From Candidatus Campbellbacteria bacterium (lineage in GTDB: Bacteria; Patescibacteriota; Minisyncoccia; Phycocordibacterales; GCA-2747955): a stretch of 64,000 bases of DNA. Below are positions 6,163 through 60,421 of this stretch, piece after piece; the first letter of the stretch is position 1, and each line of letters opens with the position of its first letter. The DNA lies in assembly GCA_002747955.1 (NCBI GenBank), contig PDQZ01000008.1:79425-143424 (forward strand), written 5' to 3'. Position numbers and translations under genes: made by a program. The notes under the pieces were generated by a model. The model did not search any database and was not told the DNA's origin. It saw only the letters and a list, made by a program, of their open reading frames with translations.

Positions 6163-7242
6163 ATGGAAAATTTTATGGACAAAGCAAAAGATTTTTATGA
6201 TGACTACAAAGGAATAATATTTTCTATTTTTTTTGTAATGTTAGGGGCATTTTTAATGTTTTTGTTTTTCAGTTACAAACAAGCTCAAAAAGAACAAGAG
6301 CTTTTGGAAAAACAAAAAGCACAAGCCTTGATTAAACAAAAAATAGAGCAAAAAATAAACTTCAATAAAAATTTACAAAAACAAATCCAAGAAAGCCTAA
6401 ACATTACAGCCGACTCTTACTTAGTAGTTGACTTTGAAACAGAAAAAGAATATTTTTATAAAAACAAAAACAAAAAGCAACCCATTGCTTCTTTAACAAA
6501 AATCGCAACTTCAGTTGTGGCATTAGAAAATTTTCTGCCTGACACTGAAATTCAAATTTCAAAAGAACATTTAAAACAAACAGAAAACAACGGTCTTATT
6601 GCAGGAGAAATTTTTCCCATCAAAAAACTTTTAGCTTTTATGATGATGGTTTCTTCAAACGACGCAGCTTATGCTGTTTCAACATCATACGAAAATAAAA
6701 GAGAAGGTTTTTTAAAAATGATGAATTTGCTTGCAAACAGAATCGGAATGAAATCAACTTTATTTTTCTCAGAATCAGGACTTGATTTAAAAAGAAGCAA
6801 TATTGCAGGTTCGTACTCAACTGTTAAAGACATTTCTCTTTTAGTTAAATATTTTTATCAAAATTTCCCAGAGTTTTCAAAAGAGTTTTCAGTTTCAAAC
6901 GGAAGGTTTTGTTCTAAAAACTTATGTCACAAAACTTACAACACAAACTCACTTTTTGGCACAACAGAGGTTAAAACAATTTTGACTCAAAAACCTCCAT
7001 ATGTAGGCCCAGAAAAAGAACCTGAAATTCAAATTGAAAAAAAACCAAATTTTGATTTTCCAATCTTGTTTTCAAAAACAGGTTACACAAACTTGGCTAA
7101 ACAGTCACTTGCAATTATAACCGAAGTTAAAGACAGGAAAATTATAATTGTAGTTTTAGGAGCAAAAAAAGGACACAGAGCAAACGATGTCAAAATTTTA
7201 ACAAAAGCAGTTGAAAAGTACTTAAAAGAAGAAAAAAAGTAA
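6163..7242 (+). CDS. D-alanyl-D-alanine carboxypeptidase (peptidase S11 / PBP5-like)
   Basis: SxxK (ASLTKI), SxN (VSSNDAA) and KTG (SKTGYT) motifs in order; N-terminal TM. Confidence 0.75.
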   Translation: MENFMDKAKDFYDDYKGIIFSIFFVMLGAFLMFLFFSYKQAQKEQELLEKQKAQALIKQKIEQKINFNKNLQKQIQESLNITADSYLVVDFETEKEYFYKNKNKKQPIASLTKIATSVVALENFLPDTEIQISKEHLKQTENNGLIAGEIFPIKKLLAFMMMVSSNDAAYAVSTSYENKREGFLKMMNLLANRIGMKSTLFFSESGLDLKRSNIAGSYSTVKDISLLVKYFYQNFPEFSKEFSVSNGRFCSKNLCHKTYNTNSLFGTTEVKTILTQKPPYVGPEKEPEIQIEKKPNFDFPILFSKTGYTNLAKQSLAIITEVKDRKIIIVVLGAKKGHRANDVKILTKAVEKYLKEEKK

Positions 7243-14580: not shown

Positions 14581-14668
14581 AAAGCCCCAAATTTTGAAAA
14601 ATTTTTTAGAAAAAACGAAAGACAAAGTCTTTCGTTTTTTCCAAAAAATTTTTCAAAATTTGGGGATT
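14581..14668. repeat. long perfect-palindrome hairpin element (family member); bidirectional terminator between tatD and rnhA
   Basis: about 43-bp arms aaagccccaaattttgaaaaatttttt... around gacaaagtc; right arm overlaps the rnhA stop. Confidence 0.7.
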
Positions 14669-15168: not shown

Positions 15169-15204
15169 AGTTATTTTAACATTTTTTGAAAATAAAAACT
15201 AATA

Positions 15205-15285
15205 AAAAGCCCGAAAATTTAATTTTGAAAAAGCTGAGAGGCCTTGCCTCTCAACTTTTTCAAAATTAAATTTTCGGGCTTTTTA
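15205..15285. repeat. long perfect-palindrome hairpin element (family member) in a divergent intergenic region
   Basis: aaaaagcccgaaaatttaattttgaaaaagctgagaggc-cttg-gcctctcagctttttcaaaattaaattttcgggcttttt; apex carries the GGCCTTGCC core. Confidence 0.7.
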
Positions 15286-16391: not shown

Positions 16392-16430
16392 AAAAAGCAG
16401 AATTTGCCTTCGGCAAATTCTGCTTTTTTT
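16392..16430. terminator. bidirectional intrinsic terminator between the transporter gene and ssrA
   Basis: aaaaagcagaatttgcc-ttcg-gcaaattctgcttttttt. Confidence 0.7.
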
Positions 16431-16432
16431 TG

Positions 16433-16831
16433 TGGAGATGGAGGGATTTGCACCCTCGTTCAAATAAACCTAATAAAAGTATCTACAATAATAGTTTATT
16501 TTAAAATATCATTTTTAAAAATAAAAAATAAACAAAATTTTTTAAAAACTATCTCTTGTAAATTCAACTGCATTTCAGAGAGTAAATACAGTTTATCTTG
16601 AAAATATTATCAGACAAACTTTCGTATCAAGAAATCAGAAAGCCGTCTGCCAACATAGCTGGGAGAATTTATCTCAACCTAAAACTATGCGTACGCGTAT
16701 GCTGGAGCAAATGGACTTGCCACTGCTTGTTTGAATTTTTTTGCATTTATATTCTTTGGAATTTTTACAATATTTCCAAATTGTATTGCAACTTGAATTA
16801 AAATTTTACTTGTCAAAGCTGGTACATCCCC
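16433..16831 (-). ncRNA. ssrA: transfer-messenger RNA (tmRNA, ssrA)
   Basis: Minus-strand 5-prime end GGGGAUGUACCAGCUUUGACAAG and 3-prime end GAGGGUGCAAAUCCCUCCAUCUCCA-A match the tmRNA tRNA-like domain, with a G3-U wobble in the acceptor stem and discriminator A. Candidate tag ORF GCA AAA AAA UUC ... GCA UAC GCG UAC GCA UAG, i.e. (A)KKFKQAVASPFAPAYAYA. Length about 400 nt. Consensus promoter directly upstream. Confidence 0.65.
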
Positions 16832-16842
16832 AGTTAGACATA

Positions 16843-16870
16843 ATTATATTTATTTTTTTAACTTTGTCAA
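16843..16870 (-). promoter_or_regulatory. sigma70-type promoter TTGACA-N16-TATAAT driving ssrA
   Basis: Minus strand reads ttgacaaagttaaaaaaataaatataat, 11 nt before the tmRNA G1. Confidence 0.6.
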
Positions 16871-16949
16871 ATTCAAAACTTGAATTTACTATATTCCAAA
16901 ATCATTTTTTCTTTTACTAATTTTTTGTTTATGATAAAATATAAAATAT

Positions 16950-19900
16950 ATGACTGAAAATAAAAATACAGATGATCAAAAAGATTATGATAAACTTTAT
17001 CCAAAAACACCTACTGTTTTAGATGAAAACGAGATTTTAGATTTTTGGAATCAAAATAAAATTTTTGAAAAATCAATAGAACAAAACAAAGAAAAAGAAC
17101 AATTTGTTTTTTACGATGGTCCGCCATTTGCAACAGGAACTCCGCACTACGGACACATTGTTCCTGGAACCATCAAAGACGTTTTCCCAAGATACAAATC
17201 AATGAAAGGGTATTATGTAAAAAGGCAATGGGGTTGGGACTGTCACGGAATGCCTATTGAAAACATTGTTGAAAAAAAACACAACCTAAATTCAAAAAAA
17301 GATATTGAAGAATTTGGAATCGAAAACTTCACAAAATCAGCCGCAGAATCTATTTTCACTTACAAAGATGTTTGGGAAGAAACAATCCCAAAAACAGGAC
17401 GATGGGCCGACATGACAAAACCGTATTTAACAATGTCGCCCGACTATATCGAGTCTGTTTGGTGGGCTTTTAAAGAGCTTTACGACAAAGGACTTGTCAC
17501 AAAAGATTTCAAAGCAATGCACATTTGTCCGCGTTGTGAAACAACACTTTCAAACAGAGACGTTTCAGAAGGATACAAAGATATCAAAGACCTATCTTTG
17601 ATTGCAAAATTCAAACTTGAAGACCAAAAAAACACTTTTGTTTTAGCTTGGACAACAACTCCTTGGACACTTCCAGGAAACGTGGCTTTGGCTGTGGGTT
17701 CAGATATTGATTATGTAAAAGTAAAAGACGCAGAAACTGAAGAATTTTTCATTTTTGCCAAAAACAAAAAAGAAGAATTAGAACAAAAATCTCAGAAAAC
17801 TTTTGAAGTGATCGAAGAGTTAAAAGGAAGCGATTTGATTGGACAAAAATACGTTCCACTTTTTGATTACTACGCAAAGAACAAAGATTTAAAAAACCAA
17901 GAAAACGGTTGGTTAATTTACGATGCAGATTTTGTAACAACAGAAGACGGAACAGGGATTGTTCATATTGCGCCTGCTTTCGGTGAAGACGATATGGAGC
18001 TTGGAAGACAACAAAGCCTGCCATTTGTTCAACATGTTGGAATGAACGGAAAATTCAACAAAGAAGTAACAGACTTTGCTGGTTTGAAAGTTCGAAAAAC
18101 AGACTTTCACGAAGAAGCCGATATTGAAATTATCAAATTTTTAGCAGGCAAAGGAGCACTATTTCACAAAGAAAAATACGAACACTCATATCCACACTGT
18201 TGGAGATGTAAAACTCCACTTTTAAACTATGCAGCATCGTCTTGGTTTGTAGATGTGCCACAAGTTAGAGAACAACTTGCCGAAGAAAACAAAAAAGTAG
18301 GTTGGGTTCCAGAATACGTTGGACAAAAACGTTTCCAAAACTGGCTTGAAACTGCCAGACCTTGGGCTGTTTCTCGTTCTCGATATTGGGGTTCACCAAT
18401 TCCAATTTGGCAAAACACAGAAGATCAAAACGATTTTAAAGTTATTGGTTCTTTAGAAGAGTTAAAAAACTATACACGAGGAACAAACAACTTTTTTGCT
18501 ATAAGACACGGACAATCAAAAGCAAATGTCAATGACAATTTATCATCAGAAATCGGAAAACACGGAGACGAGTTAACCGAAGAAGGTAAAAAACAAGTTT
18601 TAGAAAGAGCAAAAGAACTAAAAGAAACTGATTTTATTCAAAAAAATTCACAAGTTCAAAATTCAGACAAAATTGACATTATCATCTCATCTCCATTTGT
18701 AAGAACAAAACAATCAGCCGAAATCATCGCAGAGGAACTTGGAATTTCAAAAGATTACATTGTATATGACGAAAGAATTCAAGAAAGAGATTTTGGAAGT
18801 GCTACTGGAAAACCAAATCCGCTTTTTGACAAATGGATTGAAAATGAAGCCAAAACAGAAAACCATAAATTTGAAGGAGGTGAAAGTCACGCTGATATTG
18901 TTAAAAGAACAATGGAATTTTTGTTTGAAATTAATCAAAAATATGAAGGTAAAAATATTTTGCTTGTCACTCACTTTACACCAACTTATGTTATGGTTGC
19001 AACTTCTTTGGGTTATAACATGGAAAGAGCAAGAAAAATGCTAACACAAGAATGGAAAACAGTTCAAAACTCACAAGTTTATCCAATAAATTTTGCTCCA
19101 TATCCACACGACCAAAATTTCAAATTAGATTATCACAGACCGTATATTGATGATGTAAAATTTGTTCACGACGGTAAAAACTATGAAGTTATAACAGATG
19201 TTTTTGACACCTGGTTTGACTCAGGTTCAATGCCTTACGCTTCAAGACATTATCCTTTTGAAAACACAGATTTATTTAATCCAGAAAAAGACTTATCATA
19301 CCCGGCTGACTTTATCTCAGAAGGACTTGATCAAACTCGTGGATGGTTTTACGTTCTGATGGTTTTGGGATATATTTTGTTTGGAAAATCTCCATACAAA
19401 AATGTAGTTGTCCACGGAATGCTAATGGCCGAAGACGGAAAGAAAATGTCAAAATCTTTGCAAAACTATCCTCCAATGGAAAAAGTTTTGAACATTTATG
19501 GAGCTGATGCTTTAAGATTGTTTTTGTTAACATCTTCAATTGTAAAAGGAGATTCTCCCGGATTTTCTGAAAAAGGAGTAGACGAAATTTTGAAAAAAGT
19601 TATCATGAAGTCAAAAAACATCTTATCTTTTTACAACCTTTACAAAAACGAAGTTTCAAATAAAGAACTTGACTACAAAAAATCTCCAAATGTTTTAGAC
19701 AAATGGATTGTTAAAAAAACAGAAAATTTGGTTCAAAAAGTTACAGATGGTTTAGAATCATACAAGCTTGATGAAGCTTCAAGAGAATTTGTTTCGTTCA
19801 TTGACGACTTTTCAACTTGGTATATCAGAAGATCAAGAGACAGATACAAAGGACAAAATCAAGAAGATAAAGACTTTGCAATTTTAACAACCAAAGAAGT

Positions 19901-20618
19901 TTTGAAAACTTTTGCTAAAACAATTTCTCCATTTGCTCCATTTTTGTCAGAAGTTTTGTGGAAAGATTTGAAAAGCAACGACGACAAAATCTCTGTTTGT
20001 TTGGAATCTTGGCCTGAAATAAAAAAGAACTTAAAAGACAAAATCGTTTCAAACAAACATATTTTGGAGCAAATGCAAATGGTCCGAGACATCGTTTCAT
20101 TTGGTCTTGAAGCAAGATCAGAGGCAGGAATAAAAGTTCGACAACCTTTGCAAAAAGCACTTGCGGTAGGAGATTTTTCAGAAATTTCTAAAAATGAACA
20201 ATTTGTAGAAATTATCAAAGATGAGTTAAATGTAAAAGAACTTGTTTTTGCAGAAAACCTAGATGAGGTTCAGGAAAAATACAAAGAATTTGAAAACAAG
20301 GCTTTGGAAAACAAAGAAAGTGACAATGAAATTTTTGTATTTTTAGATACAGTTCTAAATGACGAACTTAAAGAAGAGGGAAATTTCAGAGAGTTTTTGA
20401 GACTTGTTCAAACCTTAAGAAAGAAAGAAGGTTTGCAAGTTAAAGATGAAATTGAACTTAAAATTGACGTTGACCAAAACTCAAAAGACTTTATTGAAAA
20501 AAATAAAGAAGAGCTAAAAAACACAGCGGGAGTAAAAAATATAAATTATTCTGAAATTCCAACAGGGGAAAGTGTAAAAATCAACGATATTGAACTTAAA
20601 GTAATTTTAATTAAATAA
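16950..20618 (+). CDS. ileS: isoleucyl-tRNA synthetase (type 2) with an inserted histidine-phosphatase (phosphoglycerate-mutase-like) domain
   Basis: HIGH (PHYGHIV), KMSKS, WCISRQ-like SRSRYWGSPIPIW; 1222 aa; insertion of about 200 aa with RHGQS, SSPFVRTKQSAEI, GGESHADIVKR and LLVTHF motifs. Confidence 0.9.
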   Translation: MTENKNTDDQKDYDKLYPKTPTVLDENEILDFWNQNKIFEKSIEQNKEKEQFVFYDGPPFATGTPHYGHIVPGTIKDVFPRYKSMKGYYVKRQWGWDCHGMPIENIVEKKHNLNSKKDIEEFGIENFTKSAAESIFTYKDVWEETIPKTGRWADMTKPYLTMSPDYIESVWWAFKELYDKGLVTKDFKAMHICPRCETTLSNRDVSEGYKDIKDLSLIAKFKLEDQKNTFVLAWTTTPWTLPGNVALAVGSDIDYVKVKDAETEEFFIFAKNKKEELEQKSQKTFEVIEELKGSDLIGQKYVPLFDYYAKNKDLKNQENGWLIYDADFVTTEDGTGIVHIAPAFGEDDMELGRQQSLPFVQHVGMNGKFNKEVTDFAGLKVRKTDFHEEADIEIIKFLAGKGALFHKEKYEHSYPHCWRCKTPLLNYAASSWFVDVPQVREQLAEENKKVGWVPEYVGQKRFQNWLETARPWAVSRSRYWGSPIPIWQNTEDQNDFKVIGSLEELKNYTRGTNNFFAIRHGQSKANVNDNLSSEIGKHGDELTEEGKKQVLERAKELKETDFIQKNSQVQNSDKIDIIISSPFVRTKQSAEIIAEELGISKDYIVYDERIQERDFGSATGKPNPLFDKWIENEAKTENHKFEGGESHADIVKRTMEFLFEINQKYEGKNILLVTHFTPTYVMVATSLGYNMERARKMLTQEWKTVQNSQVYPINFAPYPHDQNFKLDYHRPYIDDVKFVHDGKNYEVITDVFDTWFDSGSMPYASRHYPFENTDLFNPEKDLSYPADFISEGLDQTRGWFYVLMVLGYILFGKSPYKNVVVHGMLMAEDGKKMSKSLQNYPPMEKVLNIYGADALRLFLLTSSIVKGDSPGFSEKGVDEILKKVIMKSKNILSFYNLYKNEVSNKELDYKKSPNVLDKWIVKKTENLVQKVTDGLESYKLDEASREFVSFIDDFSTWYIRRSRDRYKGQNQEDKDFAILTTKEVLKTFAKTISPFAPFLSEVLWKDLKSNDDKISVCLESWPEIKKNLKDKIVSNKHILEQMQMVRDIVSFGLEARSEAGIKVRQPLQKALAVGDFSEISKNEQFVEIIKDELNVKELVFAENLDEVQEKYKEFENKALENKESDNEIFVFLDTVLNDELKEEGNFREFLRLVQTLRKKEGLQVKDEIELKIDVDQNSKDFIEKNKEELKNTAGVKNINYSEIPTGESVKINDIELKVILIK

Positions 20619-20622
20619 AGTT

Positions 20623-20717
20623 AAAAAGCCCAGAATTTTGGAGAATTTTTGGCGGAAAAAAAACAGGCGAAGCCTGTTTTTTTTCCGCCAAAAATTCTCC
20701 AAAATTCTGGGCTTTTT
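20623..20717. repeat. long perfect-palindrome hairpin element (family member); terminator after ileS
   Basis: aaaaagcccagaattttggagaatttttggcggaaaaaaaacaggc-gaa-gcctg...gggcttttt, about 45-bp arms. Confidence 0.7.
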
Positions 20718-20805: not shown

Positions 20806-20879
20806 GGGTGCCTACTCGGAATCGAACCGAGATTGTCGGATCCACAAACCGAAGTAATAACCGTTATACCATAGGCACC
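20806..20879 (-). tRNA. tRNA-His (anticodon GTG)
   Basis: Cloverleaf on the minus strand: extra 5-prime G(-1) pairing with discriminator C73, anticodon loop UUGUGGA, T-arm CUCGG-UUCGAUU-CCGAG; CCA not encoded. Confidence 0.8.
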
Positions 20880-20987
20880 ATTTCTACAAAAAATCTATTT
20901 TTGTTTGTGTATTATAGCATTTTTTTTATTTTTTTTAAAGTATTTTATGCTATAATTTAAGTATTAAAAATTTAATTAAATAAATAT

Positions 20988-21648: not shown

Positions 21649-22620
21649 ATGGCAGTTAACGCGTATACCGAATCTGAAAAAAATGTTCTAAAAACCTGGC
21701 TTTTAATGAGCGGGTTTTTAGTGGTTGTTATTTTACTAGGTTGGTGGCTTTCTTATTATTTGCAAAATCCAGTTATTTTGTATGTAGCAGCAATTGGGTC
21801 TGTAACTACAAATTTTATTTCTTATTTTAATTCAGATAAAATTGCTTTGGCAGTTTCTGGAGCAAAAGAAGCTGACTATAAAAACACTTTACACAGACGA
21901 GCAATCAGAGCCGTTGAAAATATGTCTATTGCCGCAGGACTTAAAAAAACTCCAAAAGTGTATATTATACAAGACGATGCGATGAATGCTTTTGCAACAG
22001 GTCGTGGCCCAGAAAAATCTTCGGTTGCTTTTACAACGGGGATTTTGGAAAAACTAAATAAACTTGAACTTGAAGGGGTGGCTGCACATGAGATTTCTCA
22101 TATTAAAAACCGAGATATTTTAGTTATGACAGTGGTGGTGACTTTGGTTGGGTTAATTTCAATGGTTACAGACTTTTTTTTGAGAACTTCAATTACCGGC
22201 TCAACTACAAGCAATAGAAATAACAACAACGCAGTTTTGGTTTTAATCGGAATTGCTTTAACGGTATTTTCTTTGATTGCAGCTTATATTATTCAATTTA
22301 CAATTTCAAGAAAAAGAGAGTATCTAGCAGACTCTTCGTCAGTTTTGTTAACAAGGTATCCTGAAGGACTTGCAAGTGCTTTGGAAAAAATTAAAAATGA
22401 AGCAAAGCCATTAAAGAGAGCTAAAAATGCAACAGCACATTTGTTTATTTCAAACCCTGATGTCGAAGCAGATAAAGATCGAAGAAAGAAAAATCCATTT
22501 GCCTTTGTCCAAAATATGTTTTCAACTCATCCACCAATTCAAAAAAGAATTGATATATTGCGAGAAATTGATCAAAAGAAAAAAAGAGTGACAAAAACTG
22601 GAAGGGCGGTAGATGTTTAA
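21649..22620 (+). CDS. htpX: HtpX-like M48 zinc metalloprotease
   Basis: HEISHIKNRD (HExxH) with flanking TM helices; usual LemA-HtpX pairing. Confidence 0.8.
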   Translation: MAVNAYTESEKNVLKTWLLMSGFLVVVILLGWWLSYYLQNPVILYVAAIGSVTTNFISYFNSDKIALAVSGAKEADYKNTLHRRAIRAVENMSIAAGLKKTPKVYIIQDDAMNAFATGRGPEKSSVAFTTGILEKLNKLELEGVAAHEISHIKNRDILVMTVVVTLVGLISMVTDFFLRTSITGSTTSNRNNNNAVLVLIGIALTVFSLIAAYIIQFTISRKREYLADSSSVLLTRYPEGLASALEKIKNEAKPLKRAKNATAHLFISNPDVEADKDRRKKNPFAFVQNMFSTHPPIQKRIDILREIDQKKKRVTKTGRAVDV

Positions 22621-22664
22621 AACAAAACAACAAAAACTTTGTTGTTTGGTTTTTGTTTAACCGG

Positions 22665-22712
22665 GCCCGAAAATTGAACCAAACTCCAAAAACACAGGTT
22701 CAATTTTCGGGC
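22665..22712. repeat. short member of the palindromic hairpin family
   Basis: gcccgaaaattgaacc-aaactccaaaaacaca-ggttcaattttcgggc; related to 43853..43891. Confidence 0.6.
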
Positions 22713-23124
22713 TTCATCACTTGCTTTTTTATTTTAAAATGATAAAACATTCTTATGGCTCTGGGTGTTATTAAAGATCAGTTCCTCCTAAATACACAAT
22801 TGATTTTAACACCCAGAGCCCACCACCTTTTTTTGAAGGAGGTTTTTTATTTGTCTTAAAAATAAGCTTAAAAATTTGACTACACTTATCCACACAAGTC
22901 AAATTTTATATTTGCCTTATTATTTTGCTATGTTATAATTATCTTTGCTCAAGCGTGCTTTGCACGTCGTCAAATTGTTAAGTGACCAGATCTATCTGGC
23001 ACGCTTGAGCAACCACCCTTCTGTTTTGAAGGCGGTTTTTTTATTTACCAACAATTTTCAAACAACCGTCAAGTTAATACTTGACAAATAAAATATATTT
23101 GTTAAAATATATTCAGAACTAAAA

Positions 23125-23477
23125 AAATTGTTTAGATTCAAAAAAGCCGGAGCGTATCCTAGCACGGTGACCAAACAATATTTTTAGTTTTAGAAAATAA
23201 GTGTGAGCTGGGAAACTTATTTTCGAAACTTCTTGCCTTGCTCTTAAGTAGTAGGCAAGAGTGAGGGCTGCAAAATGCTGCCCAATATAGGGGCTGCCGA
23301 AACGCCCCAAAAATAGGGAGCCCGCCCAAACCAATTTGGCTCCCAAAATCCCTCATCGACCTAATATGGTATTGAGGGTTGAGATTAAACACATCAATAA
23401 AATAGGTAAGACTTTAAAAATTTAATCTTACCAGGGTTTTGTCCCGGGCAATTTCAAGTGTTTTTAAGCAAGGATGC
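23125..23477 (-). ncRNA. rnpB: candidate RNase P RNA (rnpB)
   Basis: Minus strand contains GGUUUGGGCGGGCUCCCUAUU (resembles P4 5-prime strand GAAAGUCCGGGCUCCAUAG), GAGCAAGGCAAGAAG (resembles GGAGCAAGGCCAAAUAG) and near the 3-prime end AUACGCUCCGGCUUU (resembles ACAGAACCCGGCUUA). TGTTACAAT -10 upstream. No long ORF. Boundaries approximate. Confidence 0.35.
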
Positions 23478-23490
23478 TTAAGAGATTGTA

Positions 23491-23525
23491 ACAACCGTTG
23501 ATAATTATTTTATCAACGGTTTTTA
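23491..23525 (+). terminator. intrinsic terminator in the noncoding island
   Basis: aaccgttgata-attatttt-atcaacggttttt. Confidence 0.5.
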
Positions 23526-23807
23526 TTTTATTGAAATTTTATTTAGTTTACTTTTTATTTGAAAATGTTATAATTTTTATTGTTCGGGTGTGTTTTTTGT
23601 TTTTTTTCCTGCTCCTGGGTTTCTCAATAAAAAGCACGCCTGAACCTCCACCACTTTATTTTAAGTGGTTTTTTATTTTTTTAAATAAAAATTTGGAGAT
23701 ATGATTTTTTTATGTTATAATACTGAAAGTTTTTTTGTGAAAATGCTTGTAAAATAAGGGTTTTTACAAAGTTTTAGGTTAAATTTTCATTAAATTCGGA
23801 GGAAAAA

Positions 23808-24233
23808 ATGAAAAAAATTTTAGTTATGTTGCTAACTTTTTTGTTTTGTAAATTTGTATTTGCAAGCGAGGTGACTTGTCTTGCGGATACAATTTACAAT
23901 GAGGCTCGTAGCGAACCTCTTATTGGTCAAAAAGCAGTTGCAGCTGTTGTTTTCAATCGTATAAAAAGTAAAAGCGCTATTTACAAAGAAAACACAGTTT
24001 GTGCCACTGTAAAGAAAAAAGCGCAGTTTGCTTCTGGCAAGCCTGCGAAAAAAGGATTTGAAAGAGAAAAATACTATAAAATAAGAAGAAATTCTTTGAA
24101 ATGGTATTATGAGTTTGTTAACAAAAAATTTGTTGATCCAACTTATGGCTCTTTACTTTTTGCTTCACGTGGATACATTCACAAAGGCAAGAAAAAAACA
24201 GTAAAAATTGGTGGTCACCAATTTTTTAAGTAA
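23808..24233 (+). CDS. SleB-like cell wall hydrolase (Hydrolase_2 family), secreted
   Basis: signal peptide, then CLADTIYNEARSEPLIGQKAVAAVVFNRIKS...TVCATV...QF matching the SleB/Hydrolase_2 domain; GGAGG SD. Confidence 0.65.
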   Translation: MKKILVMLLTFLFCKFVFASEVTCLADTIYNEARSEPLIGQKAVAAVVFNRIKSKSAIYKENTVCATVKKKAQFASGKPAKKGFEREKYYKIRRNSLKWYYEFVNKKFVDPTYGSLLFASRGYIHKGKKKTVKIGGHQFFK

Positions 24234-25938: not shown

Positions 25939-26039
25939 AAACAAAGCCCAAAATTTTAGAAAAGTTTTTGGTACAAAAAAAGCAGACTTCGTCTGCTTTT
26001 TTTGTACCAAAAACTTTTCTAAAATTTTGGGCCTTGTTT
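25939..26039. repeat. long perfect-palindrome hairpin element (family member) after atpA
   Basis: aaacaaagcccaaaattttagaaaagtttttggtacaaaaaaagcagac-ttcg-gtctgc...gggccttgttt. Confidence 0.7.
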
Positions 26040-26097: not shown

Positions 26098-28074
26098 ATG
26101 ACAAACTTATTAAATTCAGAAGAAGTTAGAAAAAGGTATTTTGACTTGTTCCAAAAAGATCATGGAAATGTTAAAGTTCCTTCTTCTCCGCTCTTGCCAG
26201 AAAACGACGCTACAACTTTGTTTACAGGTTCAGGGATGCAACCAATGTTGCCATATTTGTTAGGAGAGTCACACCCTTTGGGAAAAAGAATTTGTGATAT
26301 TCAAAAATGTTTTCGTTCAGGAGATATTGATGATGTAGGGGACAACAGACATACAACATTTTTTGAAATGATTGGGAATTGGTCTTTTGGGGACTATTTT
26401 AAAGAAGAGCAAATTGAGTGGATGTTTGAGTTTTTAACAAGTAAAACTCGTGGTTTGGGACTTGATCCCAGAAAACTTTATTTCTCAGCTTTTGGAGGAG
26501 ACAAAGAGAATGGTTTAGACAAAGACACACAAGCTGCTATTAAATGGCAGGAGCTTTTGGCAGACATTGATATTGAAGCACCCATTGTTACTTTTGAAAA
26601 TGCAAAACAAGCAAGTCAGAAAGGAATGGAAGACGGAAGAATTTTCTTTTACGATGCAGACGAAAATTGGTGGTCAAGATCAGGAAGTCCTGAGAAAATG
26701 CCAATAGGTGAACCAGGGGGTCCTGACTCTGAGATGTTTTATAATTTTGGAACAGAACACAACCCGAAGTTTGGGAAACACTGTCATCCAGCTTGTGATT
26801 GTGGACGATTTATGGAAATTGGAAACAATGTTTTTATGACTTATAAAAAAGTTTCTGAACACAAGTTTGAAGAACTCCCAGCAAAAAACATTGATCACGG
26901 AAGTGGACTTGAAAGACTAACCGCTGCTTGCCAAAATCAGCCTGATATTTTTAAAACTGATTTGTTCGAAGATATTATTCAAAGTTTGGAAAATGCAAGT
27001 GCTAAAAAATATGAAGACCCAAAATATCAAAAAGATTTTAGAATCGTTGCGGACCACTTAAAATCATCTGTAATGATTATGGCTGATAAGCTTACACCTT
27101 CAAACAAAGATGCTGGATATATTTTAAGAAAACTTTTGAGAAAACTTATTTTATCAGCCCAAAACTTAGATATTCAAAATGAATATTATGAAAATATTAT
27201 AAACGGAATCATTGGAAAGTATAAAGATGTTTATCCAGAAGTTGCTGAAAATTCTGAATTTATCAAAAACGAATTTAAAAAAGAAGTTGAGAAGTTTTCA
27301 AGGGCTTTAAAGTCAGGAACCAAAGAACTTGAAAACATTATTTCCAAAAAAGAAGTTGTAAAAGTAAATCCAGACAGAAAAGATTGTTTTACAGGTGAGT
27401 TTCAAACTTTTGAAGCCAAAAACACTTTAACTGGAAAAGAGGTTTTTGATTTGTTTACAAGTTTTGGACTTCCTTTGGATGTTATCAGGCAAGAAGCTCA
27501 AAAAAGAGGATTTTGTATTGATGAAGATGCTTTTGGTCTTTTGTTTAAAGAACATATTCAAAATTCAAAAAACACATCAGCAGGAAAGTTTAAAGGAGGA
27601 CTTGCTGGAGATAGCCCAAAAATCAAAGCTTTTCATACAGCAACACACTTAATGTTGGCTGGATTGCGAAAGTATTTGGGAGACGGTGTTAATCAAGCAG
27701 GATCAAACATTACAGAAGAAAGAACAAGGTTTGATTTTACACATTCTGAAAAAGTTCCAAGAGAAATTTTAGATAAAGTAGAAGAATACGTAAATGATGT
27801 AATTGAAAAAGAACTTGATATGGAAATTACAGAAATGGAAAAAACAAAAGCCAAAGAACAAGGAGTGGTTGGATCATTCTGGGAAAAATATCCTGAGATT
27901 GTAAAAGTTTGGACAATCAAAGATGACCAAAATATTTACACTCAAGAACTTTGTGGAGGTCCGCATGTAAAAAATACGAAAGAAATGAAGGAGTTTGGAA
28001 GGTTTAAGATTAAGAAGGAGGAGTCATCGTCAGCGGGAGTCAGAAGAATTAAAGCTGTTTTTACAAGAGATTAA
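26098..28074 (+). CDS. alaS: alanyl-tRNA synthetase, short form lacking the C-terminal C-Ala/DHHA1 region
   Basis: class II core (FTGSGMQPM..., HTTFFEMIGNWSFGDYFK), editing-domain HxxxH (HTATHLMLAGL) and CGGPHV; 658 aa versus about 875 typical. Confidence 0.85.
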   Translation: MTNLLNSEEVRKRYFDLFQKDHGNVKVPSSPLLPENDATTLFTGSGMQPMLPYLLGESHPLGKRICDIQKCFRSGDIDDVGDNRHTTFFEMIGNWSFGDYFKEEQIEWMFEFLTSKTRGLGLDPRKLYFSAFGGDKENGLDKDTQAAIKWQELLADIDIEAPIVTFENAKQASQKGMEDGRIFFYDADENWWSRSGSPEKMPIGEPGGPDSEMFYNFGTEHNPKFGKHCHPACDCGRFMEIGNNVFMTYKKVSEHKFEELPAKNIDHGSGLERLTAACQNQPDIFKTDLFEDIIQSLENASAKKYEDPKYQKDFRIVADHLKSSVMIMADKLTPSNKDAGYILRKLLRKLILSAQNLDIQNEYYENIINGIIGKYKDVYPEVAENSEFIKNEFKKEVEKFSRALKSGTKELENIISKKEVVKVNPDRKDCFTGEFQTFEAKNTLTGKEVFDLFTSFGLPLDVIRQEAQKRGFCIDEDAFGLLFKEHIQNSKNTSAGKFKGGLAGDSPKIKAFHTATHLMLAGLRKYLGDGVNQAGSNITEERTRFDFTHSEKVPREILDKVEEYVNDVIEKELDMEITEMEKTKAKEQGVVGSFWEKYPEIVKVWTIKDDQNIYTQELCGGPHVKNTKEMKEFGRFKIKKEESSSAGVRRIKAVFTRD

Positions 28075-28393
28075 AAAATTTCTTTTTTCTTGACAAAAAA
28101 AAGAAAAAAACCAACACGCTGATAAACGCAAACCAAAATTAGCGTACTCGGAAATACTTTAAATCAAGACTTCAAATTTCTTGCTTGTCGAGCACTCAAT
28201 ATGCTTGAACAGTAAAAAATTAACTGTCGTCTCCACACAAAAACAAAAATCATACGGTTTTTGTTTTTGATTTTTTATAAAAAATACTATGAATTGACGA
28301 AAATCTTTTTAGCAACCCTTAAAAAATAGATAATCATCGATATTTTTAATTTAATATATTTTTATTTAATTGAAATTTTGATATAATAAGTTT

Positions 28394-29569: not shown

Positions 29570-30496
29570 ATGTTGACAAGAAACAATTCAAGGCAGCTGG
29601 CTTTACAGACAATGTTTGTTTTAGATACAAGATTTTTTGGTTTGGATTATCAAGAAAACCAAAATCTAGACACTGACAAAATCAGTGAGGTTTACTCTTA
29701 TGTTTTTGAAAATTTTTATAAAGATAAATCAAGTGGTGAGGATGAATTTTCTAAAAATTTAATTTTTGGAGTTGTCAAAAATCTAGAAGAAATTGATCAA
29801 TATATTCAAAAATTTGCTAAAAATTGGTCACTTGAAAAAACTGCGATTGTTGATAAAAATATTTTAAGAATTGCTATTTATGAGCTTTTGTTTTTTGAAA
29901 GTGAGTTACCAGGGAAAGTGGTAATCAACGAGGCTATTGAACTTGCTAAAAAATATGGACATAAAAAATCTCATTTATTTATTTCAGGACTTTTAGGTGC
30001 TTTATATGAGAACATGGGTTTGGAGAAAAAAGACCAGAAGTTGAATAGTTTACCCAAAAAAATTACCGAAAAGAAAAAAGTGGGTGCTTTGTGTTTTTAT
30101 AAAAAAGAAGGAAAAATTAAATATCTTTTAGTTCATAATATTTTTGGAAAATGGACACTACCTAAAGGTTCTGTTGAACAAGATTTTGACAACATAAACG
30201 ACGCTTTAAATTCAATTTTGAAAAGTAAAGTAAATGTTGAAGGAAAAGCAGGTGATATTATTGGTAAGAATGAATACAGTTCTTTAAAAGATGTTAGAAA
30301 TATTGTTAAAAAAGACATTGTTTATTTTATTTTTGAAGTTTCAAATCCAGGTGAAACTGAAGTGAAACAGAAAAATGGAGGTTTAAATAACGTAAAATGG
30401 TTTACTGAGGAAAATTTAAAAAAAGCTCAAACTTACGAAGATTTAGAAGAAATTATTCAAAAAGGAGTGGAATTAATTAAAAAACAAAATGTCTAA
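29570..30496 (+). CDS. nusB: NusB-like antitermination factor fused to a C-terminal Nudix-like domain
   Basis: N-terminal RQLALQTMFVLDTRFF...LEKTAIVDKNILRIAIYEL matches NusB; C-terminal VGALCFYKKEGKIKYLLVHNIFGKWTLPKGSVE resembles the Nudix fold but lacks REx2EE. Confidence 0.55.
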   Translation: MLTRNNSRQLALQTMFVLDTRFFGLDYQENQNLDTDKISEVYSYVFENFYKDKSSGEDEFSKNLIFGVVKNLEEIDQYIQKFAKNWSLEKTAIVDKNILRIAIYELLFFESELPGKVVINEAIELAKKYGHKKSHLFISGLLGALYENMGLEKKDQKLNSLPKKITEKKKVGALCFYKKEGKIKYLLVHNIFGKWTLPKGSVEQDFDNINDALNSILKSKVNVEGKAGDIIGKNEYSSLKDVRNIVKKDIVYFIFEVSNPGETEVKQKNGGLNNVKWFTEENLKKAQTYEDLEEIIQKGVELIKKQNV

Positions 30497-36209: not shown

Positions 36210-36300
36210 AAACAAAGCCCGAAATTTTTGGTGAGTTTTTTGAAAAAATAAAAGGCAATGCCTTTTATTTTTTCAAAAAACTCACCAAAAATTTCGGGAT
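36210..36300. repeat. long perfect-palindrome hairpin element (family member)
   Basis: aaacaaagcccgaaatttttggtgagttttttgaaaaaataaaaggc-aatg-gcctttt...cgggat; about 80% identical to 41933..42030 with mirrored substitutions. Confidence 0.7.
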
Positions 36301-41932: not shown

Positions 41933-42030
41933 AAACAAAGCCCGAAATTTTTGATAAGTTTTTTTGAAAAAACAAAAGGCGTTGCCTTTTGTTTTTTCAA
42001 AAAAACTTATCAAAAATTTCGGGATTTGTT
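41933..42030. repeat. long perfect-palindrome hairpin element (family member)
   Basis: aaacaaagcccgaaatttttgataagtttttttgaaaaaacaaaaggc-gttg-gccttttg...cgggatttgtt. Confidence 0.7.
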
Positions 42031-43852: not shown

Positions 43853-43891
43853 GGGCCGAAAATTTGACCCCACCCAACCACCCAGGTCAAA
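43853..43891. repeat. short member of the palindromic hairpin family
   Basis: gggccgaaaatttgacc-ccacccaaccaccca-ggtcaaattttcggccc. Confidence 0.6.
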
Positions 43892-43970
43892 TTTTCGGCC
43901 CACCCAAACCTTTAAAGTTATCAACATTTTTTCTTAACTTATCTTTCTTTTTTTGATAAAATGAATATGT

Positions 43971-46052: not shown

Positions 46053-46080
46053 TTCGAATCCCTCCGGAAGCTACAAGACA
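46053..46080. repeat. inverted duplicate of the tRNA-Arg 3-prime portion plus 9 nt of its trailer
   Basis: tcgaatccctccggaagctacaagacac is the reverse complement of 46122..46148 (gtgtcttgtgcttccggagggattcga) with one indel; an internal terminator hairpin lies between the copies. Confidence 0.7.
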
Positions 46081-46122
46081 CAGAAAAAACTTAAAGCTGT
46101 CGCTTTAAGTTTTTGTGTCTTG

Positions 46123-46194
46123 TGCTTCCGGAGGGATTCGAACCCCCAAAAGCGGTTTCGAAGACCGCTGTGATATCCATTTCACCACGAAAGC
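46123..46194 (-). tRNA. tRNA-Arg (anticodon TCG)
   Basis: Minus-strand cloverleaf GCTTTCG / GTGA-AATGGATA-TCAC / GCGGT-CTTCGAA-ACCGC / TTCGAAT T-loop / CGGAAGC, discriminator A. Confidence 0.8.
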
Positions 46195-46253
46195 ATAAAG
46201 ATATTTTAACATAAAAATGATTAAAAAACAGTATTTAATGTTATAATATAAAA

Positions 46254-46849: not shown

Positions 46850-46898
46850 CAAGGCCTTGCCTTGAGATAGGCAAGGCCTATCTCAAGGCAAGGCCTTG
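46850..46898. repeat. 49-bp perfect palindrome (triple-hairpin/cruciform capable), copy 1 of 2 identical copies
   Basis: caaggccttgccttgagataggc-aag-gcctatctcaaggcaaggccttg; identical to 60313..60361 with about 8 bp of shared flanks. Confidence 0.8.
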
Positions 46899-56118: not shown

Positions 56119-56213
56119 TTAAAGCTCGAAATTTTGAAGCAAATTTTTGGAAAAAAGAACAAGCGACGCTTGTTCTTTTTTCCAAAAATTTGCTTCAAAA
56201 TTTCGGGCTTTAA
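56119..56213. repeat. long perfect-palindrome hairpin element (family member) after greA
   Basis: aaagctcgaaattttgaagcaaatttttggaaaaaagaacaagcg-acg-cgcttgtt...aaatttcgggcttt. Confidence 0.7.
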
Positions 56214-60240: not shown

Positions 60241-60312
60241 GTTTTTAACAAACCCCCGTCAGCGAAGCTGGCGGGGTATTTTTTTAAATTCACAAAAACA
60301 TTCCAGCAAAAT

Positions 60313-60361
60313 CAAGGCCTTGCCTTGAGATAGGCAAGGCCTATCTCAAGGCAAGGCCTTG
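60313..60361. repeat. 49-bp perfect palindrome, copy 2 (identical to 46850..46898)
   Basis: caaggccttgccttgagataggcaaggcctatctcaaggcaaggccttg. Confidence 0.8.
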
Positions 60362-60421
60362 ATTTTTTCTTTTAACTTTTAGGGAAATGTTTTTGGGGGA
60401 AAATATGATATAATATTTCAT

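Follow-up and report, generated by a model that had tools for sequence, protein, structure and literature searches.

Here we describe a gene-free island of 1,187 nt (positions 22621-23807) in a 64-kb window, the whole stretch of DNA analyzed, from a genome of Candidatus Campbellbacteria (CPR/Patescibacteria). Its upstream neighbor is htpX and its downstream neighbor is a gene encoding a SleB-like hydrolase (23808-24233; Pfam Hydrolase_2), and the neighboring genes and the RNA units described below all lie on the plus strand. The NCBI locus tag of the SleB-like gene is CSB11_01515, with an identical copy in SRR6011893. On a crude map of open reading frames of at least 90 aa, no other gap in the window comes near the island in length; the second-largest measures 571 nt and contains the tmRNA (16430-16831), and the median gap is approximately 140 nt. 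The GC content peaks at 46% in the island versus a background of 30%, and its segments fold beyond chance, with z-scores of -7.85 (plus) and -7.43 (minus) for the central core and of -5.1 to -8.6 for three smaller units. The island is non-coding and densely filled with structured-RNA candidates, as the original prediction of an approximately 1.1-kb gene-free stretch of this kind had it. Coordinates of all features are collected in Table 1.

Public gene callers called zero genes inside 22621-23807, the 77-aa open reading frame of the island has no homologue among 5.8 billion protein clusters, and the island frames gave zero Pfam matches. The codon-phase GC of the core is flat (0.400/0.400/0.395; the range of real genes is 0.219), and none of 63 coding windows is as flat. 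We therefore rejected a protein-coding gene or pseudogene, including the short minus-strand frames at 23119..23392, which had been suspected from the outset of not being genes. ARAGORN found no tRNA-like gene in the island, and a replication origin or DnaA-box cluster was rejected on the basis of a single lone box and a uniform GC skew. The segment 23694..23807, with the promoter and the 5' UTR of the SleB-like hydrolase gene, is the end of the island and lies outside the RNA cluster.

Table 1. Predicted features of the island between htpX and the SleB-like hydrolase gene
Feature	Position	Strand	Score or remark
Perfect 16-bp palindrome, GCCCGAAAATTGAACC / GGTTCAATTTTCGGGC, right after the htpX stop codon	22665..22712	.	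z = -5.7
Predicted promoter of unit A: TTGCTT, 16-nt spacer with TG, TAAAAC	22721..22748	+	repeat family D1
Candidate RNA of unit A, ~95 nt	22755..22852	+	-38.1 kcal/mol, z = -7.3
11-bp palindrome between A and B, related to the dispersed family	22871..22907	.	81% identity to 43859-43895
Predicted promoter of unit B: TTGCCT, 16 nt, TG-TATAAT	22912..22939	+	10/12 consensus matches, with TG
Candidate RNA of unit B, ~100 nt	22945..23046	+	-38.0 kcal/mol, z = -5.1
Predicted promoter of the large RNA: TTGACA, 16 nt, TG-TAAAAT	23081..23108	+	11/12 matches with TG; best in region
Large structured RNA candidate, ~415 nt, between B and C	23115..23533	+ (probable)	hairpin chain, fold z = -7.85
H1, 17-bp stem, from the predicted +1	23115-23191 (helix 23117-23189)	+	
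H2; H3; H4; H5	23193-23224; 23228-23262; 23265-23283; 23290-23308	+	fold
H6; H7; H8; H9; H10	23316-23344; 23350-23379; 23406-23433; 23435-23446; 23449-23488	+	fold
Predicted terminator of the large RNA, 12 bp, then UUUUAUUUUAUU	23493-23521	+	best terminator in region
Two extended -10 boxes, TGTTACAAT and TGATAAAAT	23493->23485 and 23515->23507	-	inside the plus-strand terminator hairpin
Predicted promoter of unit C: TTTACT, 16 nt, TG-TATAAT	23547..23574	+	10/12 consensus matches, with TG
Candidate RNA of unit C, ~96 nt	23581..23678	+	-37.2 kcal/mol, z = -8.6
Predicted promoter TGGAGA, 16 nt, TG-TATAAT	23694-23721	+	consensus scan; serves the SleB-like hydrolase gene
5' UTR of the SleB-like hydrolase gene, ~80 nt, with SD (GGAGG)	within 23694..23807	+	

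A consensus scan of the island returned four plus-strand promoters with TG-extended -10 boxes and flagged three plus-strand terminators, at 23017-23032, 23493-23521, and 23650-23669; a fourth terminator, at 22822-22843, came from an architecture descriptor, and the U-tracts are found on the plus strand only. The promoter of unit A was missed by the scan because its -10 hexamer has a C at the end, and its box TGATAAAAC (22740-22748) was picked up by the descriptor. Outside the island, a gene or RNA gene follows 25 of the 27 extended -10 boxes in intergenic DNA; 13 of them have their end 4-10 nt upstream of the start codon, and the box of tRNA-Arg ends 8 nt before the mature 5' end. The position of the boxes relative to genes therefore makes them good promoter predictors and places the +1 at the base of each stem. 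By these signals, the three small units and the large RNA are each predicted to possess a sigma-70-type promoter of their own. A Shine-Dalgarno sequence is present in just 5 of 51 genes, and wide use of leaderless mRNAs appears to be the rule in this genome, judging from the placement of its boxes.

Two paralogous elements with perfect 14-bp stems had been proposed upstream of the core. Both exist, with stems at 22757-22770/22807-22820 and 22945-22958/22999-23012, each followed as described by CCACC, a U-run, GAAGG(A/C)GG, and a second U-run, but they form a triplet rather than a pair: the promoter-to-terminator unit noticed separately at 23565..23680, which the promoter and terminator scan and the fold both support, is a third paralogue. 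Unit A folds into a perfect 14-bp stem (22757-22820) with a 9-bp upper stem and a 14-nt apical loop containing CCUCCU, followed by CCACC, the terminator hairpin (22822-22843), and U6. Unit B has a 14-15-bp stem (22945-23012), CCACCC, a terminator hairpin (23017-23032), and U7, and unit C a 20-bp stem that includes four G.U pairs (23582-23645), then CUCCACCAC, a terminator hairpin (23650-23669), and a U-run. The minus strand of unit C reaches only -20.7 kcal/mol (z = -2.7), so that the good fold is restricted to the plus strand.

The stem arms of units B and C are 69% identical. Among 13 aligned stem pairs, six are changed and all still pair, two of them being altered on both sides and four on one side via G.U, with none broken. 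Unit A is too diverged for an in-register alignment with B and C, and all covariation evidence comes from this one pair of paralogues because no relatives were found. The comparison suggests that units A, B, and C are paralogues whose stems have been kept paired under sequence drift. The full architecture, i.e., a box, a stem of at least 10 bp beginning 4-10 nt later, and a terminator, occurs exactly three times on both strands of the window, always in the island; the count is zero in 100 kb of relatives' loci and 0.03 per shuffle. Likewise, the terminator pattern CCACC...AAGKNGK-T5 is found only at the three units, with zero occurrences expected. A tRNA-minihelix or CCA reading of the CCACC motif was rejected, since in each unit the motif is the 5' arm of the terminator. 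The apical loops share no common seed sequence, and duplexes of the loops with mRNAs or with the large RNA were no better than those of shuffled loops, so that no target was found; the few Shine-Dalgarno sequences of this genome leave the CCUCC loop of unit A little to mimic.

The candidate large RNA between units B and C is a chain of approximately ten mostly GC-rich hairpins joined by A-rich linkers, with a GC content of up to 46%. With no homologues known, it has no covariation support. A CsrB-like sponge was set aside on the sequence, as the RNA holds four GGA motifs only, one of them in a loop (GCAAGGAUGC, H10). A large RNA had been proposed on the minus strand, but the promoter and terminator evidence favors, though not with certainty, the plus strand: its promoter matches 11 of 12 consensus positions, its 12-bp terminator has a U-tract, H1 begins at the predicted +1, and the local fold of the core is both lower in energy and richer in G.U pairs (-113.9 with nine G.U on the plus strand versus -108.5 with three on the minus strand). 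A minus-strand transcript of the core, alone or paired with the plus-strand one as sense and antisense, is unlikely, yet it has a case. The boxes TGTTACAAT and TGATAAAAT could drive an antisense transcript from about 23478, five of the seven minus-strand intergenic boxes outside the island precede real minus-strand genes, the fold z-scores of the two strands are almost equal, and on the minus strand H5 has a UUCG-type loop and short U-rich tracts follow H7, H6, and H5. Neither box, however, has a usable -35 element, the sole minus-strand terminator candidate is weak (23087-23066; nine pairs, three of them GC, with the tail UUGUUUGAAA), and the neighboring genes and units are all on the plus strand, from which the large RNA is probably transcribed.

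No DNA relatives of the island were found by blastn in phages or plasmids (one Streptomyces match was spurious) or in two metagenome probes, and viral contigs scanned with the signature of units B and C yielded 16 chance matches in high-GC coding DNA. The nearest homologue of HtpX is 57% identical and that of the SleB-like protein 40%, and a scan of genome contigs with HtpX returned Chloroflexota matches only, at approximately 40%. The spacer after htpX is only 25-170 nt long in four relatives, the htpX neighborhoods in the contig sets of seven relatives show no conserved island, and blastn and nhmmer searches against the relatives' loci found no relative of the island. One of these relatives (L013) carries an analogous but non-homologous promoter-hairpin-terminator unit. 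Among RNA families, SRP, 6S, tRNA-like, riboswitch, ribozyme, intron, and OLE/ROOL/GOLLD/raiA models were rejected with no match at E<=10, and the only Rfam matches in the island are generic hairpin-plus-terminator look-alikes (Phe/His leader, L10 leader, and miRNA models) at 15-27 bits. A literature search found no paper on regulatory RNAs in CPR/Patescibacteria.

Taken together, we lean towards interpreting the island as a lineage-specific group of four non-coding RNA genes on the plus strand, each transcribed independently, and not as an RNase P RNA. The evidence that carries this interpretation is the absence of a coding signal, the strong folding, the promoter and terminator architecture, the pair-preserving paralogy of the units, the plus-strand-specific fold of unit C, and the lack of RNase P features described below; the transcripts themselves and their exact ends are inferred from these signals, as are the strand of the large RNA and all functions proposed below.

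The palindromes of this genome provide a different, rather improbable explanation, namely that DNA-level REP- or MITE-like palindromes and decayed spacer have accumulated in the island. The hairpins would then be selfish or structural features of the DNA, the promoter- and terminator-like strings would reflect no more than its AT-richness, and a functional RNA would not be made. Like REP/BIME elements, long palindromes are dispersed in the spacers of the window, and hairpins cluster at gene ends. The window contains 378 perfect 11-mer hairpin seeds compared with 4.6 in shuffles, many of its spacers have perfect palindromes of 38-44 bp, and extended -10-like strings occur at 3.7 per kb of spacer. 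Two palindromes of the island recur as REP/BIME elements do. The first, next to htpX, belongs to a dispersed family beginning with GCCCGAAAATTT, with relatives at 43853-43901, 15203-15285, 36218-36298, and elsewhere; the second, between units A and B, holds in its loop the perfect DnaA-box consensus TTATCCACA (22886-22894), the lone box noted above. Most island stems are perfect Watson-Crick helices, as expected of DNA palindromes, and conservation is absent in every relative compared. Recurrence is confined to these two elements, however, whereas units A-C and the core have no similar sequence elsewhere in the window, and the core hairpins are unique rather than copies of the dispersed family. 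The stem of unit C needs its four G.U pairs and folds far better on one strand than on the other, and therefore is not a DNA palindrome. The B-to-C changes keep RNA pairing via G.U and double changes, the promoter, stem, and terminator are phased precisely three times, far above the shuffled expectation, and nearly all intergenic boxes of this genome mark real promoters.

A cluster of RNA genes also accounts for the units better than a set of tiny leaderless protein genes (34-48 aa) would, possibly encoding hydrophobic peptides like type I toxins, which we regard as very unlikely. The habit of boxes ending shortly before start codons and the rarity of Shine-Dalgarno sequences would suit such genes, an ATG lies 6 nt past the -10 box in unit A and a TTG 5 nt past it in unit B, one frame is common to all three terminators with AAG a codon in each, and the frame of unit C yields the hydrophobic CFLFFFLLLGF. 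But the stop codon lies past the terminator U-run in every unit, and the transcripts would thus end without a stop codon; unit C has no start codon at the predicted +1 despite being clearly homologous to B, the B/C differences preserve RNA pairing and not protein sequence, and the frames have no Pfam match and were not called by gene callers.

The core had been taken for an RNase P RNA on the minus strand (approximately 23125..23477). It does recall the RF00010 (type A) and RF00011 (type B) RNAs, which are about 350-400 nt long, in forming a GC-rich island in an AT-rich small genome, and the size (approximately 350 nt) and GC enrichment are compatible with that assignment. The three strings on which it was based are present, as reverse complements of 23312-23327, 23229-23243, and 23143-23154, and they resemble parts of CR-I (GGGCUCC), CR-IV (GAGCAAGGC), and CR-V (CCGGCUU) in that order, although the resemblance proved superficial. 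In addition, the minus-strand box TGTTACAAT would give a start near 23478, and rnpB was not seen elsewhere in the 64-kb window at E<=1. The organism needs RNase P activity, as its tRNA-His leader is approximately 25 nt and its tmRNA leader approximately 4-5 nt long. CPR RNase P RNAs can escape default Rfam thresholds, and in 10 of 35 circular CPR genomes the RNA was detectable only at about 5 bits with RF00010 (Lui et al. 2021, PMC8172020); therefore, a blank Rfam result alone is weak evidence.

Rfam scans of both strands for RNase P, SRP, and 6S RNA, proposed earlier as the check, gave no match at E<=10 in the island, and together with the absence of conservation this is the outcome that was to count against the original prediction. 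For RNase P families, there was no match at gathering score or at E<=1 in the window, nor at E<=10 on slices of 1,351 and 441 nt, the latter scanned with the laxest filters; matches below approximately 13-15 bits would not be listed in these scans. In the P4 helix, a CR-I strand AAG(U)CCNNN pairs at long range with a CR-V strand NNNGGCUU; the losses in diverged RNase P RNAs of CPR concern peripheral helices (P12-P18), whereas the P4 core is kept (Lui et al., PMC8172020). No such pairing is found here. A search of both strands for P4 helices (8 bp, P4 bulge, span of at least 150 nt) found no partner for CCGGCUU, there being no AAG(N)CCGG-type sequence upstream of it, and the matches obtained were AU-rich chance helices. 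By hand, AAAGUCU (23415) and GGCUU (23148) form a maximum of five pairs, and both are sequestered in local hairpins. The motifs GAAAGUC, AAGUCC, ACAGAA, GGCUUA, and GGAAAGUCC are absent from both strands of the island, and the only AAAGUC and the only GGCUU lie on the minus strand, the former overlapping the 3' arm of the perfect 7-bp hairpin H8. The local 17-bp hairpin H1 carries the CR-V-like block in its loop, which prevents the ends of the RNA from closing P1/P2 around that block. Each look-alike string is part of a local hairpin, as an arm or in a loop. The CR-IV-like string is one arm of H3 with its partner upstream, on the wrong side for P15, and the flanking terminator is functional on the plus strand only. 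Both strands fold as linear chains of local hairpins, unlike the multi-junction fold of RNase P RNA, which is closed by its own ends. A genuine Paceibacteria rnpB for comparison was sought in approximately 90 kb of relatives' loci, where there was none. We conclude that the core is not RNase P RNA, and that it represents a highly diverged CPR version of it on the minus strand (approximately 23477->23125) is extremely improbable. In annotating CPR genomes, a few RNase P-like strings in a GC-rich structured island are not reason enough to name it rnpB; it should also be possible to draw a P4 core.

In the favored interpretation of four RNA genes, each would be transcribed from the standard extended -10 promoter of the genome, with a start predicted 6-9 nt past the box. 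A long helix would begin with the very first nucleotides of each transcript, and an intrinsic terminator would mark the other end. Because the 5' end would lie within a helix and the 3' end within a terminator hairpin, these RNAs should be protected from exonucleases, with only the apical and internal loops left exposed. Their role is probably in regulation or in protein binding: units A, B, and C would most likely act via their loops, as trans-acting antisense (kissing-loop) regulators or protein decoys, and the ~415-nt RNA would most likely serve as a protein-binding scaffold or sponge. These functions are a guess, because nothing similar was found in any collection searched. A bolder version, which we consider quite unlikely, would make the ~415-nt RNA the first example of a new CPR class of large structured RNAs, functionally coupled to the three flanking hairpin RNAs, for example as one ribonucleoprotein system or a scaffold-plus-regulator set; more radically still, it might be a rearranged replacement of a housekeeping RNA such as RNase P RNA, with an unrecognizable P4 core. 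A large part of bacterial diversity belongs to CPR/Patescibacteria, and four phased non-coding units, each running from promoter to terminator, that together occupy 1.2 kb of so small a genome probably bring it some benefit. If expressed, these RNAs would supply concrete riboregulator candidates, of which there are few, for a genome-reduced lineage of episymbionts whose translation seems to rely mostly on leaderless mRNAs.

Comparison with known RNAs places the units and the core near several systems. The small SRP (4.5S) RNA (RF00169) is likewise an RNA of about 100 nt in which a single long hairpin, closed by the two ends, precedes a terminator, and the ends of unit A (GGCUCUG...CAGAGCCCACC) recall those of E. 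coli 4.5S RNA; however, the family gave no match at E<=10, and the unit has neither the GNRA tetraloop nor the symmetric/asymmetric loop motif of domain IV. The large RNA is reminiscent of OLE, ROOL, GOLLD, and raiA, large 'ornate' bacterial non-coding RNAs whose function is unknown or recently emerging, in being longer than 400 nt, GC-enriched, multi-hairpin, free of any obvious function, and located in a long GC-rich intergenic region of an AT-rich genome. None of these families scores at E<=10, and the predicted fold of the large RNA consists of hairpins in simple succession, with neither junctions nor pseudoknots demonstrated.

Tandem paralogous trans-acting small RNAs with their own promoters and intrinsic terminators include Qrr1-5, OmrA/B, PrrF1/2, LhrC1-5 of Listeria, and the streptococcal csRNAs. 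The island RNAs differ from them in that their loops share no seed, their stems of 14-23 bp are nearly perfect and begin at +1, no targets were found in a genome where Shine-Dalgarno sequences are rare, and no homology to an Rfam sRNA family was detected. The csRNAs and LhrC have anti-SD loops, to which the CCUCCU apical loop of unit A is similar, and as in these families several paralogues of about 100 nt are gathered in one spacer, each with a promoter and a Rho-independent terminator.

Between htpX and the gene for a SleB-like hydrolase lies the largest gap in the window (22621-23807, 1,187 nt), which agrees with the original prediction of a gene-free island; on a crude ORF map of the window, the second-largest gap, holding the tmRNA gene, is 571 nt and the median gap is ~140 nt. 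The source MAG, Candidatus Campbellbacteria (Parcubacteria/CPR), has a GC content of ~30%, and within the island GC peaks at 46% (23200-23399) against a 30% background. Nearly all genes of the window are carried by the plus strand. The HtpX protein of the window shares 100% identity with an NCBI entry for Candidatus Campbellbacteria, and a Logan assembly of SRR6011893 contains 5.3 kb of the locus in identical form. Based on architecture, we interpret the island as a lineage-specific orphan cluster comprising four putative ncRNA genes, namely three small hairpin units (A, B, and C) and a large RNA of ~415 nt, from promoter to terminator, located between B and C. The SleB-like hydrolase is itself almost an orphan, its sole other homologue in 5.8 billion clusters being 40% identical, and its gene is one of few in the window to combine a strong GGAGG Shine-Dalgarno (SD) sequence with a long 5' UTR.

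Features of the island and of the surrounding window
Feature	Position	Strand	Remarks
htpX	21649-22620	+	upstream island flank
Unit A RNA	~22755-22852	+	stem starts 8 nt past box
Unit B RNA	~22945-23046	+	stem starts 5 nt past box
Large-RNA promoter	23081-23108	+	TTGACA, 16 nt, TG-TAAAAT; 11/12 matches; region's best
Large-RNA terminator	23493-23521	+	12-bp stem + UUUUAUUUUAUU; region's best
Unit C RNA	~23581-23678	+	stem starts 7 nt past box
SleB-like Hydrolase_2 gene	23808-24233	+	downstream island flank
tmRNA	16430-16880	-	promoter TTGACA-17-TATAAT, ~4-5-nt leader
tRNA-His	20806-20919	-	~25-nt leader
tRNA-Arg	46122-46211	-	promoter box ends 8 nt before mature 5' end
Dispersed palindromes	20625-20715, 25946-26032, 36218-36298, 41941-42023, 56127-56205		
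Dispersed palindromes, same family	15203-15285, 14585-14665, 43853-43901, 22665-22712		
Boxes near start codons (e.g.)	ending at 924, 4181, 7274, 13741, 15304, 16940		
Further boxes near start codons (e.g.)	ending at 28387, 31193, 43962, 46247, 50417, 60414		

The island is non-coding. Public gene callers placed no genes in it, none of its five notable ORFs matched Pfam, and a 77-aa minus-strand ORF, itself never gene-called, had no homologues in 5.8 billion clusters. Codon-phase GC in the core, the segment of the large RNA, is flat (0.400/0.400/0.395), compared with mean GC1/2/3 values of 0.42/0.28/0.22 in genuine genes here, and none of 63 coding windows is equally flat, which bears out the earlier dismissal of the short minus-strand ORFs as genes. 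The small ORFs of units A and B, which start at +1, are probably not genes, since their stop codons come only after the U-run of the terminator and a start codon is missing at +1 in unit C.

Extended -10 promoter boxes (TGnTAnAAT) occur in spacers at ~5 times their density in genes, and of the 27 intergenic boxes outside the island, 25 are followed by a correctly oriented gene or RNA gene. A start codon comes just 4-10 nt after the end of 13 boxes, and an SD-like motif was present in only 5 of 51 genes; this short spacing and the rarity of SD motifs indicate widespread leaderless mRNAs, on which the genome appears largely to rely. From the box-to-start spacing, +1 was set ~6-9 nt past the box.

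Units A, B, and C have an identical order of elements, comprising a promoter, a long stem from the predicted +1, 1-4 unpaired nucleotides, a terminator hairpin containing CCACC, and finally a U-run. Both perfect 14-bp stems and their tails (CCACC, U-run, GAAGGNGG, U-run) are present as originally described, as is the unit near 23565-23680; the supposed twins both exist, but belong to a family of three paralogous units. Across both strands of the window, a whole-architecture descriptor matched A, B, and C and no other site (0.03 matches per shuffled window); it matched nothing in loci of Paceibacteria relatives totalling 100 kb, and the unit terminator pattern is confined to these three loci within the window, with 0 expected. 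B and C are clearly homologous: their arms are 69% identical, and among 13 aligned stem pairs two carry changes on both sides and four a one-sided change via G.U, with every pair kept intact. Unit A shares the architecture, its sequence being too diverged for in-register alignment. The B/C signature gave 16 viral matches; these lie in high-GC coding DNA without hairpin or terminator and were rejected as chance.

The main rival explanation is that much of the island reflects accumulation of palindromes at the DNA level, as long perfect palindromes abound in the genome and the island itself contains two. The window contains 378 perfect 11-mer hairpin seeds versus 4.6 in shuffles. The dispersed palindromes are intergenic and perfect, with stems of up to 44 bp and 3-nt loops, many starting with (A)GCCCGAAAATTT, and resemble bidirectional terminators or elements of the REP/MITE type; another family (CAAGGCCTTGCCTTGAGATAGGC) occurs at 46850-46898 and 60308-60366. 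However, such accumulation leaves unexplained the phased promoters and terminators, the pair-preserving B/C changes, and the G.U-dependent stem of unit C. The latter 20-bp stem, with four G.U pairs, has a folding energy of -37.2 kcal/mol (z = -8.6) for the plus strand versus -20.7 (z = -2.7) for the minus strand, and is therefore an RNA-level feature of the plus strand and not a mere DNA palindrome.

The large RNA is predicted to fold into roughly ten hairpins in a chain (H1-H10), of which H1 begins at the predicted +1, a design shared with the small units. The 426-nt core folds at -140.8 kcal/mol (z = -7.85) on the plus strand and -132.6 (z = -7.43) on the minus strand, so that folding is far past chance. 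The idea of a structured-RNA island is reasonable. H4-H6 form a run of GGG...CCC hairpins between AUAGGG and CCCAAAA, and direct reading of the sequence reveals GCCSAAAC in both the H5 and H6 loops. Local-fold energies are -113.9 (plus) versus -108.5 (minus), with 9 versus 3 G.U pairs. The strand call is insecure: the two strands hardly differ in z-score, the terminator hairpin contains two extended -10 boxes of the minus strand (23493 to 23485 and 23515 to 23507), and on that strand H7, H6, and H5 each have a short U-tract after them; a plus-strand origin is fairly probable.

The original assignment of the minus-strand core to RNase P RNA was rejected. At gathering score, Rfam detected only tmRNA, two tRNAs, and an L10 leader in the whole window; RNase P, SRP, and 6S models had no match at E<=10 on slices 22550-23900 and 23100-23540, nor RNase P at E<=1 anywhere in the window. 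In 10 of 35 circular CPR genomes, RNase P RNA is detectable only at ~5 bits, with P12-P18 often missing (Lui et al. 2021, PMC8172020); because of such low scores, the core architecture was tested directly. The three RNase P-like strings are present on the minus strand as originally described. The conserved strings GGAAAGUCC, ACAGAA, and GGCUUA are lacking on both strands, and for the single CCGGCUU block no partner able to form a bulged P4 helix exists upstream. This block lies within the loop of H1, a local 17-bp hairpin (23117-23189), so that the RNA ends are unable to close P1/P2 around it. The sole AAAGUC overlaps the 3' arm of H8, a perfect local 7-bp hairpin, and the 'GAGCAAGGC' string is one arm of the local hairpin H3. 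The observation of the island is real, and the RNase P label, which is not supported, should be dropped.

Since the tRNA-His and tmRNA precursors have leaders, RNase P activity is required, and rnpB or a protein-only enzyme must therefore sit outside the window. The tRNA-Arg precursor, judged by its promoter box, is essentially leaderless. Its 3' CCA is not encoded, and a 19-nt inverted copy of its 3' end (TTCGAATCCCTCCGGAAGC; 46053-46071 versus 46124-46142), 52 nt from the gene, could be a scar of integration at the tRNA. Among the plus-strand protein genes, isoleucyl-tRNA synthetase (16950-20618, 1,222 aa) has a His_Phos_1 histidine-phosphatase insert (residues 517-697) in its catalytic domain, AlaRS (26098-28074) is short (658 aa), with the catalytic core and tRNA_SAD domain only, and NusB (29570-30496, 308 aa) has a fused C-terminal NUDIX domain.

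A replication origin was rejected given uniform GC skew and a lone DnaA box, a perfect consensus (TTATCCACA, 22886-22894) in the loop of a small palindrome between A and B, which is not oriC because there is no cluster or GC-skew switch, and is either chance or a DnaA-regulated site. A second perfect DnaA box occurs just past htpX in the Paceibacteria relative L013 (6940-6948).

A helix at the 5' end and a terminator at the 3' end would make the candidate RNAs resistant to exonucleases and let them present their loops. Such a buried-ends design fits A-C as possible antisense/kissing-loop regulators or protein decoys, and the large RNA as a possible protein-binding scaffold or sponge. Specific targets found no support, since the loops formed no better duplexes than shuffled loops did, either with the large RNA or with translation-initiation regions. 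The core had no similarity elsewhere in the window, in relatives' loci, or in phage/plasmid records, and no metagenome contig matched two 19-nt probes.

The nearest homologue of HtpX shares 57% identity, and the space after htpX is 25-170 nt in four other Paceibacteria. In L013, a 650-nt gap contains an analogous, non-homologous promoter, G.U-containing hairpin, and terminator. At 6990-7110 of this Pacebacteria locus, and also in L014 and L015, a TATAAT box lies right after htpX with the RNA 5' end ~6 nt on; in the L013 unit this end forms part of a stem of 11 bp, three of them G.U (AUUCAUUUGAU / AUCGGGUGAAU), and the terminator CUCAGCUUCGGCUGGGG-U5 comes next. Although it has no sequence similarity to units A-C, the L013 unit matches their architecture.
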